The notes beneath the pieces were generated by a model. It did not search any database and was not told the origin of the DNA. It was given only the letters and a program-made list of their open reading frames with translations. A stretch of DNA of 58,922 nt, counting the filler, from Dugesia japonica (Eukaryota), in NCBI GenBank assembly GCA_001938525.1. It is 5 parts of 5 records of this genome, joined end to end, with 100 filler letters (N's around TTAATTAATTAA, not from the genome) between each part and the next. Parts side by side here need not be neighbours in the genome. Positions count along the whole stretch, not along the records: positions 1 to 9,709 come from MQRL01596187.1; 4 more parts are not named here. One strand, 5' to 3'. Positions 4,606 through 7,944 of this stretch are shown piece by piece. Position 1 is the first letter of the stretch, and the number at the start of each line of letters is the position of its first letter. The position numbers and the translations under genes were made by a program.

Positions 4606-4755
4606 AATTATTAGATTGGAAAGGAAATAATGTCTTTTTTGTGTTTGTTTTAATGTTTCAAAATTTTCGTCTCATTTCAACTGAAGATAACAATTATGGA
4701 ATGATAAAACCAAATGCTTGTCATTTATCTTTACGAGTACAAATTGGTTCACAAG

Positions 4756-5689
4756 TAGACATTGTGATCCCAGGATACCGGTCGATTTCTGAACCCGAAA
4801 ATCCCAGGATTGTAATTAATTTTAAATTTACGGGGGTTGAGCATCAGCTGTGTTTTGCCCATGTGTGTTGTTGTGTATAAAACTGGATCTTTGCAAACGG
4901 CCAAATTCGAACTGTTAGAAGGAACTGAATATAATGACCCACCTTTTGAGAAAATCCATAAACTTAAGTAAATGACGTAAACTTTGTTTCCACATATTTG
5001 GTCCTTAATGCGAAGGATGATCTTGTTTGCCATCACATAGTAATTTAAAATTAGGAGGTAAATTTTTTGAGTTTTTACAATTTTTTTCGTCATTCGGCAA
5101 TTTTTTTTTACTATTATAAAAAATATATTCCTGAAGAAGACAATTGTCGAAAATTTGAATATCTATAAAANNNNNNNNNNTTTTTGATCGAAGCTTTTTC
5201 TTTATTTTAATGAAATCTCAAATGCGATCAATGGTTAATTGTCCAACAATTATTCTCACAATAATTGTAATATAATAATAAGTAGGTTAAATTATCATAC
5301 CTGAAATGTATATGCACATTTTCAAAATGAAAAAGGATAAATAATAGATTATGGATCTCATAAATATAATTCTGTTTTATTATTATTTACTTTTGTTATG
5401 TATAAATATAAAATATAAAAAACTTTCTTTTTGAATTACAAATGTATTTAGTATTTAGGAAGATTTTTTATTTTGTGCTCGTTAAAAATTTTATGAAGAT
5501 TAGATAGACATATAGGCAATATATTTATCCATATAGGCATTGTATAACAGAGCTGTTCATTGTATAATACAATTTGTATATATACTATATATCTTTCTAC
5601 GTTAAAGCGAATTCATAATAATTAATTTTTTTAAATAATCCCAGGATTATTAAATGTTTGATCCCAAAATCACGGGATTGCAATCCCTA
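4756..5689 (+). mobile_element. Non-autonomous hAT-like TIR element nested in the mariner
   Basis: Left end tagacattgtgatcccaggat is a degenerate inverse of the right end atcacgggattgcaatcccta. Subterminal atcccaggat repeats are present, and internal GVEHQLCFAH resembles the hAT CxxH motif. Confidence 0.65.
5125..5162 (+). ncRNA. Minimal type I hammerhead ribozyme motif (Penelope pLTR type)
   Basis: atattc-CTGAAGA-a-gac aatt gtc-GAAA-attt-gaatat. It has a 6-bp stem I, intact CUGANGA and GAAA boxes, stem II, and a palindromic AAUU in place of stem III. The shared pLTR-like tail follows to ~5270. Confidence 0.7.
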
Positions 5690-7944
5690 GCTGCAGAAAC
5701 AAGTCAAAATATCAATTGCGCATTCGATTAGGGGACAATACATGAGCGCTCAACGAGGAGATGGTTACAAAATCNCAAAATATCAATTGCGCATTCGATT
5801 AGGGGACAATAAATGAGCGCTCAACGAGGAGATGGTTACAAAATCTTGGAATTGGGGATGAGAACCTGGAAGATGTAAAAGGTCGTGGACATCCAACTTT
5901 TTGGATAATAAAAAATTGAACGATTTGGTTAAGGCAGATCCTCACACAACTATTCGATATCTTGTTTAAGATTTAAATTTCAGTTATGTAGCAATTCTAA
6001 ATCTCAAAAAATTTGGCAAATGGTTGCCACGTGATTTAAGTGAAAAACAAAAAAGTCGGCGTTTGGAAGTCTGCTTGTCACTTCTTCAGAAAATTTACAG
6101 TCCTTTCATCAATCTTATAGTGATATGCGATGAAAAATAGGTATTATACGATAACCACATGCGTTTCACATAATGGTTGTACCATGACATCACTTCACAA
6201 CAATCATCAAAACCCTAACTTCATTTAAAGAAGGTTATCGTAAGCATTTAATGTTATTTGGGAGACATTATCCATTATAACTTTTTGCCTCCCGGTTAAA
6301 CTATTACAGTGGGTAACTATTGTAAAAAATCAAAGAGATACATAACAAGTTGCAATTACTTTATCCAGCTTTGGTCAATAGAAAATATCAAATGGATTCC
6401 TATCTATATGCTACACAAATAATACTACGATGGTTACATGACTTAGGCTGCAAAATTTTGCGTCATCCTCTGTACCCGCTTGCCTTTTCCTTAACTGACT
6501 ATTATTTTTTTAAACATCTTGCTGTTTTCTTGGATGGAAAAATTCTTAAAAACCAAGGTTCTGTTGAAAATGCATTCCGCGACTATTGAATCCAGATTCG
6601 AGAATTTCTTTACGACTGAAATGAGAAAGTTTGTTTTCGATTGGTAAGCGTTTTTTGATTTTAATAGTTCATATTTTAATTAATAGTTATTGTCTTNGAG
6701 TAATTTCAGTTTAAATTTGAAAGTCTAAAATGGACATTATTTTCTTACTAATCTAAGAATTGTTTTGTTTAAATTACTTTCTTTGTTGATATTAATTCGG
6801 CATCCTAAATATTCGTTACGTAGGTATTCTTATATTTAGTTACGATGATAATTTCATGTTAACAATGGACATGTTTGTTTAAAGAAAGGTTTTAATTATT
6901 CAGAAAATGATGTGGGAACGTTTGAGTGTTGTATGTAAAACCGAATTTTCAGAACGTTCACATGGATTGACAAACTCCTTCAATGCTTTAACATAAATTA
7001 TGTTTTGCAGATTTCTCAAATAATATCATTTCTAAGTTGGTGGCAGAACTTCTTCTGTACAATTAAAATCGAGGACAAGTGATTTAATAGGGGTTTCCAA
7101 ATTTATTTACATTAGGAAAACATGATGCAGGCTAGCTTTCCTGTAGTCTAAGCCAATAAATCAGTACTTTTCGTGTTAATTGTTCTGTAAAATCATGTTC
7201 AGCACCAATTAGGAGTTATTTTTGTTTTTTATGAAGCTGCTGAGAATAACGTCATATTTAGGAGACGGGAAAAATTTATTGTTGGCATTTTAAATAATGT
7301 TTGTGACAATTTAGTTGTGGAGCTTGAAAGCCACCTGAAAGCTAATGAAGCATAAACAGCCGGTTTGGAGTATTTTTTGCAAATGAACAACCTAATAATG
7401 GGAGTGATGGAAACATAATAAAAACTTTGATAAATACATCCTAGAATAACACTGACTGTGACATGTTTGAGGATGAGCTTGATCAATTTATGATCCTTGA
7501 AAAAAATGAAATCATAACAAATCCTATCAATATGTGTCAGTTAATGGTATGGTGTCTACTTTTCATGCTTTTTTTATTAAAATCAAATTACATCATATTC
7601 TTTGAAAATAGTTTCTATAAACAATTATATTACTGTCACGTAACGTAATACTCACAAAACGGTTTCAAGTTCAAATTTGGTTTTTAGGCAACTTATTTCA
7701 AATAGGCTACACACCACCAGTTTACTCTCAGTATACATGTTCAAAAGTCCCAAAAGATGTGCGTCTAGTGTTTCATTTTCTGTAAACACGTCACTGTAGA
7801 TCATTAGATATTACTGAGTTCTGTTAAAAATTATATAGGAGCGATTTGCTCGCAAGAGTTCCCCTAAAATCAATATATTTTATTTCGTTTTTGATTGAAA
7901 AAGTTTAGTATATGAATTTGTGTTTATTTAATAAATTTTTTATA

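Follow-up and report, generated by a model that had tools for sequence, protein, structure and literature searches.

A hATx-type transposon inserted in a Dugesia japonica mariner element with no apparent target-site duplication

Introduction

Transposases of the hAT superfamily excise their elements with blunt ends or 1-nucleotide (nt) overhangs (PMC8151067) and join the 3′ ends to a new site at staggered positions, and the filling of the resulting gaps produces a target-site duplication (TSD) (PMC8151067, PMC4122938). One named hAT group, hATx in Dfam usage (PMC9783078), includes hATx-6 of Hydra vulgaris, for which 8-bp TSDs are described at 54 genomic insertions (Riggs et al. 2021, PMC8721813). 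Only elements that satisfied a filter for 8-bp TSDs were counted in that set; even so, the 54 insertions establish that the hATx-6 enzyme does make 8-bp TSDs. The text of the same study reports an in vitro target bias toward G at position 1, a pyrimidine at positions 3 and 5, a purine at positions 4 and 6, A at position 7, and C at position 8, and in the flank toward C (+2) and A (+3). By our reading, this bias is symmetric about the 8-base window and provides independent support for an 8-bp stagger. In our translation by hand of the published sequence (PMC8721813), the second gene block of hATx-6 encodes EHQLCxxH, five further residues, and VCDVLYK. The CxxH motif is common to hAT and MULE enzymes (PMC5225508).

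Integration that leaves no TSD has been described for Spy elements (Han et al. 2014, PMC4122938). Spy inserts at AAA|TTT, carries GGANNNNG termini and a PHIS-type transposase, and lacks TSDs across the family. An earlier note on the D. japonica genome drew attention to a hAT-like element with terminal inverted repeats (TIRs) that interrupts a mariner transposon with no duplication of its flanks, and proposed that it may mark a lineage with blunt insertion chemistry. Here, we describe the junctions, ends, and coding remnant of this insert, and we weigh the ways in which it could have arisen.

Results

The locus lies in a stretch of 58,922 nt, filler included, assembled from five parts of D. japonica assembly GCA_001938525.1 and referred to here as the window. 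The window is AT-rich (GC of 15 to 32% in 2-kb steps), contains 41 N runs, and is populated by many decayed transposons. We summarize the features of the locus in Table 1.

Table 1. Annotated features of the interrupted mariner, its hATx insert, and the nested repeat
Feature	Position	Strand	Basis
Host mariner, 5′ part: left TIR (~4606-4640) and first 19 codons of decayed transposase	4606-4755	+	TIR 83% alike with 6727-6761; aligns with P0003 residues 4-19
Putative 8-bp hATx target, present once, right-hand copy missing	4748-4755	.	9/12 fit to symmetrised hATx-6 bias, best of 9 registers
Left hATx end: decayed TIR (4756-4772) and subterminal ATCCCAGGAT repeats (4767-4776, 4801-4810)	4756-4811	+	12/16 and 17/26 in register with right end
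Frameshifted hATx transposase remnant, from CxxH motif (4839-4862) to weak K-x-R-K/R-like stretch near 5050	4830-5062	+	EHQLCxxH motif; part after 4885 by-eye resemblance only
Penelope pLTR-like repeat nested in hATx, boundaries approximate, contains 10-N gap	5065-5295	+	73-92% matches to other window copies; Penelope label from hammerhead type
Minimal type I hammerhead ribozyme motif	5125-5162	+	Pattern and folding; fits minimal hammerhead features in PMC4209133
Right hATx end: subterminal repeat (5638-5647) and intact TIR (5673-5689)	5638-5689	-	17/17 identical to hATx-6 LE/RE termini
Host mariner, 3′ part: decayed transposase and right TIR (~6727-6761)	5690-6761	+	tblastn to P0003, E 1e-56; SETMAR chains, E 8e-12

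The host resembles Hsmar1/SETMAR-related mariners in that its transposase is colinear with P0003, P0004, P0005, and SETMAR chains, and its short TIRs are flanked by TA. It differs from them in its many stops and frameshifts and in being interrupted at codon 19/20. P0003 to P0005 are the three full-length relatives among 31 candidates retrieved with the longest open piece of the host mariner as the query. At 5705-5845, within the mariner, a 70-bp stretch occurs twice in tandem (69/70 identical), split by one N; the two copies match much more closely than the decay of the element would lead one to expect and are therefore probably an assembly overlap. Similar cases are the identical pairs next to N runs at 19807/20262, 44194/44507, and 45318/46111. 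Directly upstream of the mariner is an AT-rich minisatellite (3980-4615) with units of ~55 and 72 bp.

Elsewhere in the window, two more decayed mariners of other families lie at 37476-38250 and 33800-35470, and a DDE_1 (pogo/Tigger-type) transposase fragment lies at 29040-29288 (+; E 7e-13). By eye, 74-361 (-) and 52196-54585 (+) look like fragments of a gypsy-type LTR retrotransposon (zinc knuckle, integrase, RNase H-like), and the fragments at 56563-57189 (+) look like pieces of a Maverick/Polinton-type DNA polymerase. At 48773-49654 (-) lies the window's longest open frame, of 293 codons from stop to stop.

The insert occupies 934 bp (4756-5689), and its removal in silico restores the mariner frame with 0 bases gained or lost. 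The left junction reads ttcacaag|TAGACATTGTGATCCC, the insert beginning at 4756, and the right junction reads GGGATTGCAATCCCTA|gctgcaga, the insert ending at 5689. At these boundaries, the longest repeat common to both flanks is a single G, in agreement with the earlier note; for candidate TSDs of 4, 5, 6, 7, 8, and 9 bp, the flanks match at 1/4, 1/5, 0/6, 3/7, 2/8, and 3/9 positions. A retained 8-bp TSD would lengthen the host by 8 bp and so break the mariner frame. Nor would point mutation by itself often mask a retained TSD: the probability of at most 2/8 matches is 0.0008 to 0.06 at 10 to 25% divergence. Two other hATs in the window served as controls and do keep 8-bp TSDs, as had been stated: the flanks of 7957-8389 match at 6/8 positions and those of 22433-23656 at 8/8. 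We take the termini of these two elements to recall Charlie/Buster and Tip100 types.

The earlier observation that the mariner reading frame rejoins colinearly across the excised insert is borne out. The rejoined site reads YKLVHK|AAET and aligns gaplessly with all three of the full-length mariner transposases tried; N-terminal identity is 67% with P0003 over residues 4-46, 57% with P0004, and 48% with P0005. Scored apart, the left and right flanks both peak at a codon shift of 0 (for the right flank against P0003, 84 versus -18 to -32 elsewhere), and the mariner copy at ~37476 shows the same colinearity at the insert spot. Because both flanks anchor at shift 0 and the homologue alignments are gapless, we conclude that the host shows neither duplication nor loss of any base. 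Of 43 codons compared with P0003, the one immediately left of the junction (K) alone requires two changes to become its counterpart (G). The two closest homologues have G at this position, but K is found both in P0005 and in the mariner at ~37476, so that the K at the junction may be meaningless. The insert contains a gap of 10 Ns (5171-5180), and the Ns nearest to the two junctions are 415 and 85 bases away.

The TIRs attributed to the insert in the earlier note are only partly preserved. The right TIR is intact and matches the Hydra hATx-6 ends over all 17 terminal bases, and the left TIR is decayed, with 5 mismatches to the right one among the first 17 bases. The ends of the insert and of hATx-6 diverge after ~19 bases; the insert therefore represents another family of the hATx group. 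Left and right ends correspond without gaps over 26 bases (17/26 in register versus 3 to 7/26 when shifted by 1 to 4 bases), and, with its position dictated in advance by the interruption of the mariner, the 12/16 match between the TIRs has a probability of 1.4e-5. When end pairs are sought anywhere in the window, 36 of them reach 12/16; the pair alone is thus not significant, and it is the interrupted mariner that places the left end. The 10-base subterminal motif ATCCCAGGAT has three copies in the whole window, against an expected 0.04, and all three lie in the two insert ends.

Further searches with the ends gave little. Allowing up to 4 mismatches, we found no further hATx end in the window with a partner end. 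A terminus scan of a prokaryotic genome collection returned four matches, none with a second end in its flanks, which we take to be chance. A search for a templated filler source of the first 10 left-end bases yielded one 9/10 match, at 5534, which is about what chance would give by a hand-estimated expectation.

The coding remnant supports the same classification as the termini. The HQLCFAH fragment that had been singled out as a CxxH motif is present at 4839-4862 within EHQLCFAH; the pattern EHQLCxxH matches once, and in 0 of 100 shuffles. It is followed by a deletion and then by a VC..VYK-like stretch in another frame. The DDE triad, BED finger, and C-terminal dimerisation domain are deleted or unrecognisable. 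Word searches for transposase relatives with two frames of the insert gave no match, all three phmmer matches to a 30-residue piece were repetitive, unrelated proteins, and a protein atlas search gave scores of 0.78 or less only. Pfam had no match for three insert-derived translations (among 11 proteins scanned). Since these short broken frames retrieved no transposase relative from the databases, the protein evidence consists of the motif comparison only. The shared terminus and EHQLCxxH motif confirm the earlier hAT assignment and narrow it to hATx; judged by its sequence, the insert is best described as a decayed, internally deleted, non-autonomous hATx transposon.

We then compared the insertion site with the published target bias by scoring the nine 8-bp registers that span the empty junction against a symmetrised form of the hATx-6 bias (12 positions). 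This consensus is post hoc, being drawn from the wording of a paper on another family (hATx-6), and three of its positions were added by symmetry. The best score, 9/12, belongs to 4748-4755, the register that abuts the left end, and all others score 2 to 5, including the junction-centred register (2/12) and the right-flush 8-mer (5/12). Sites scoring at least 9/12 make up 0.14 to 0.21% of 56,498 window positions and 0.25 to 0.34% of 1,183 mariner positions. When only the literally named positions are used, 4748-4755 fits at 6/9 (1.5% of sites, uncorrected for the choice between two 8-mers and two orientations); the core eight positions alone give 6/8 (2.4 to 10% of sites). The two control hATs, which belong to other groups, score 1 and 2 on the hATx-6 bias. 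These comparisons provide moderate evidence for recognition by a transposase of an 8-bp target that abuts the left end of the element, in which case the right-hand copy would be the missing one.

The insert is itself interrupted by a pLTR-like repeat, which has further copies at 2886-3339 and 24803-24960 (73 to 92% matches, in the latter near 24803-24891) and shorter ones at 14743-14793, 19880-19908, and 20335-20363. For the insertion of the nested copy we found one candidate TSD, 6 bp and AT-rich, which we did not accept. The nest of mariner, hAT, and pLTR that had been described is upheld, with hATx inside mariner and the pLTR-like repeat inside hATx, and it is real but ordinary. We agree, too, that the insert hosts the best hammerhead copy: that at 5125-5162 is the most complete of six related stretches viewed. 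It comprises a 6-bp stem I, CUGANGA, an extra base, a G-C-closed 3-bp stem II, GAAA, and a palindromic minimal helix III. A second core, with one mismatch, is found at 3209-3229, and the cores of the other pLTR-like copies are truncated. Rfam hammerhead models gave no hit at the gathering score in the whole window and none at E values up to 10 in 2500-6000. The motif shares with the minimal hammerheads of Penelope-like element pLTRs, as presented in PMC4209133, the extra base between core position 9 and helix II, the G10.1-C11.1 pair, and the palindromic minimal helix III. Unlike the Schistosoma minimal hammerheads described there, in which helix II has 7 to 8 bp, its helix II has 3 bp. By pattern and predicted fold, this is a real Penelope-type minimal hammerhead of a known kind.

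Discussion

The observations to be accounted for are the exact junctions, the zero net change to the host, the hATx terminus and motif, and the fit of the flanking 8-mer to the target bias. We consider it probable that they reflect a normal 8-bp staggered hATx insertion whose right-hand TSD copy was lost, either at gap repair or later. A hATx transposase acting in trans would have excised the non-autonomous element, and both of its 3′ ends would have been joined to the mariner 8 bp apart around 4748-4755, leaving both ends with single-stranded gaps of 8 nt. Fill-in would then have completed the left side, and the 8 nt on the right would have been lost. By the simplest route, breakage or trimming of the single strand preceded fill-in and was followed by rejoining of the ends; a less simple route is a later deletion flush with the TIR. 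A later random deletion would have had to be exact, because a shift of one base costs a mismatch, and would be a rare outcome. Deleting the exact 8-mer from a modelled duplicated allele yields the observed right junction with 0 mismatches, which is true by construction and indicates that one event suffices. The outcome would be a complete element with no net host change, into which the Penelope pLTR-like repeat inserted separately. Staggered integration at this site, the choice of the right-hand copy as the one lost, and the manner of its loss are our reconstruction. Among the points against it, it concerns one site only, and the left end, rather than the right, is the more decayed. Published rates for hAT insertions without a TSD did not turn up in the mostly open-access literature searched, which included passages of PMC2753552.

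We weighed this reading against four others, and the probabilities that we attach to all of them are judgements rather than computed values. An excised hATx fragment with blunt or nearly blunt ends could have been end-joined into a chromosome break without strand transfer, as an isolated event in an otherwise ordinary family. Capture by end-joining is often accompanied by trimmed or added bases, and none are seen here save perhaps at the doubtful codon left of the junction. Such a capture also leaves unexplained why the left-flush 8-mer should fit the target bias of the transposase, and we regard it as unlikely even though both termini are complete, no host base was lost, hAT excision leaves blunt ends or 1-nt 5′ overhangs (PMC8151067), and the hATx-6 end oligonucleotides in PMC8721813 carry a 1-nt 5′ overhang. 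We would give similarly little credence to a remodelled left junction, in which deletion plus filler, or an error in the assembly consensus, removed the left TSD copy and damaged the TIR, and the frame was preserved partly by luck. The five differences in the left TIR, the adjoining codon that is the sole two-step difference from P0003 in 43, and the roughness of the assembly (its N runs, the gap within the insert, and the split 70-bp tandem in the mariner) all speak for it. Against these stand the ungapped register of the left end with the right, the distance of the nearest Ns from the junctions, and the colinear mariner sequence on both flanks; moreover, the best single deletion in a left-loss model is still the flush 8-mer, and the right-flush 8-mer fits the bias worse.

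The blunt insertion chemistry proposed in the earlier note would require a hATx sub-lineage that joins both ends at one phosphodiester, its 8-bp stagger collapsed to zero, as proposed for Spy. A blunt cutter would at each insertion leave both termini in place and the host length exactly unchanged, as seen here, and the insert, whose ends depart from those of hATx-6 beyond ~19 bases, belongs to a different family. The TSD length differs among hAT groups, some having TSDs of 5 to 7 bp in the Repbase classification. Cut-and-paste elements without TSDs exist, as Spy illustrates (PMC4122938). However, the terminus and motif of the insert are those of a family with 8-bp TSDs, the 8-bp target signature is flush with one end rather than junction-centred (9/12 versus 2/12), and a single copy is at issue. 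We therefore do not uphold the proposal and hold a blunt sub-lineage to be very unlikely; no report of a TSD-less hAT group was found in the mostly open-access literature searched. Least probable of all, to the point that we give it almost no weight, is that the terminal TA, TAG, or AG represents a short TSD and that the insert belongs to a TA- or TWA-targeting superfamily. These repeats do appear when the boundaries are moved by 1 to 3 bases, but the empty mariner site then exceeds all three homologues by 2 bp or falls 1 bp short of them, the internal motif is of hAT type, and the TA belongs to the published hATx-6 terminus (PMC8721813). We rejected Tc1/mariner and PIF/Harbinger as the superfamily of the insert; a TA or TWA TSD would shift the host frame by +2.

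If, as we think likeliest, a staggered insertion lost one copy of its TSD, the locus is a clean case of a hAT insertion minus one duplicated flank and matters little beyond a caution that a single TSD-less junction does not define a chemistry. A blunt hATx sub-lineage, if true, would be the first TSD-less hAT group among the literature searched and a second, independent origin of eukaryotic blunt cut-and-paste integration after Spy, with hATx-6, a biochemically tested 8-bp relative, available for direct comparison. If the whole family were TSD-less, this would demonstrate that the stagger of a hAT transposase can drop to zero, the residues that set the stagger could be mapped against hATx-6, and a scar-free integration tool might become possible.

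Two of the closest described systems are Spy (PMC4122938) and hATx-6 (PMC8721813). Like Spy, it is a TIR element without a TSD whose target is unchanged at a paralogous-type empty site, although at one site. Its junction is AAG|GCT, whereas Spy inserts at AAA|TTT; its termini are TAGGG and its motif is of hAT type, in contrast to the GGANNNNG termini and PHIS-type transposase of Spy; and the lack of a TSD, which is family-wide in Spy, is here a property of one copy. Unlike hATx-6, with its 8-bp TSDs, the insert has no TSD at its one site; it is also a non-autonomous element of 934 bp whose transposase is reduced to a frameshifted piece of ~230 bp and which carries a nested pLTR-like repeat. 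With hATx-6, it shares the 17 terminal bases of its right end and subterminal repeats of GATCCC type, related ones being found in hATx-6 RE30, as well as EHQLCxxH followed by a VC..V.YK-like stretch; its flanking 8-mer agrees with the reported target bias at 9/12 positions of the symmetrised consensus and at 6/9 of the literally named ones.
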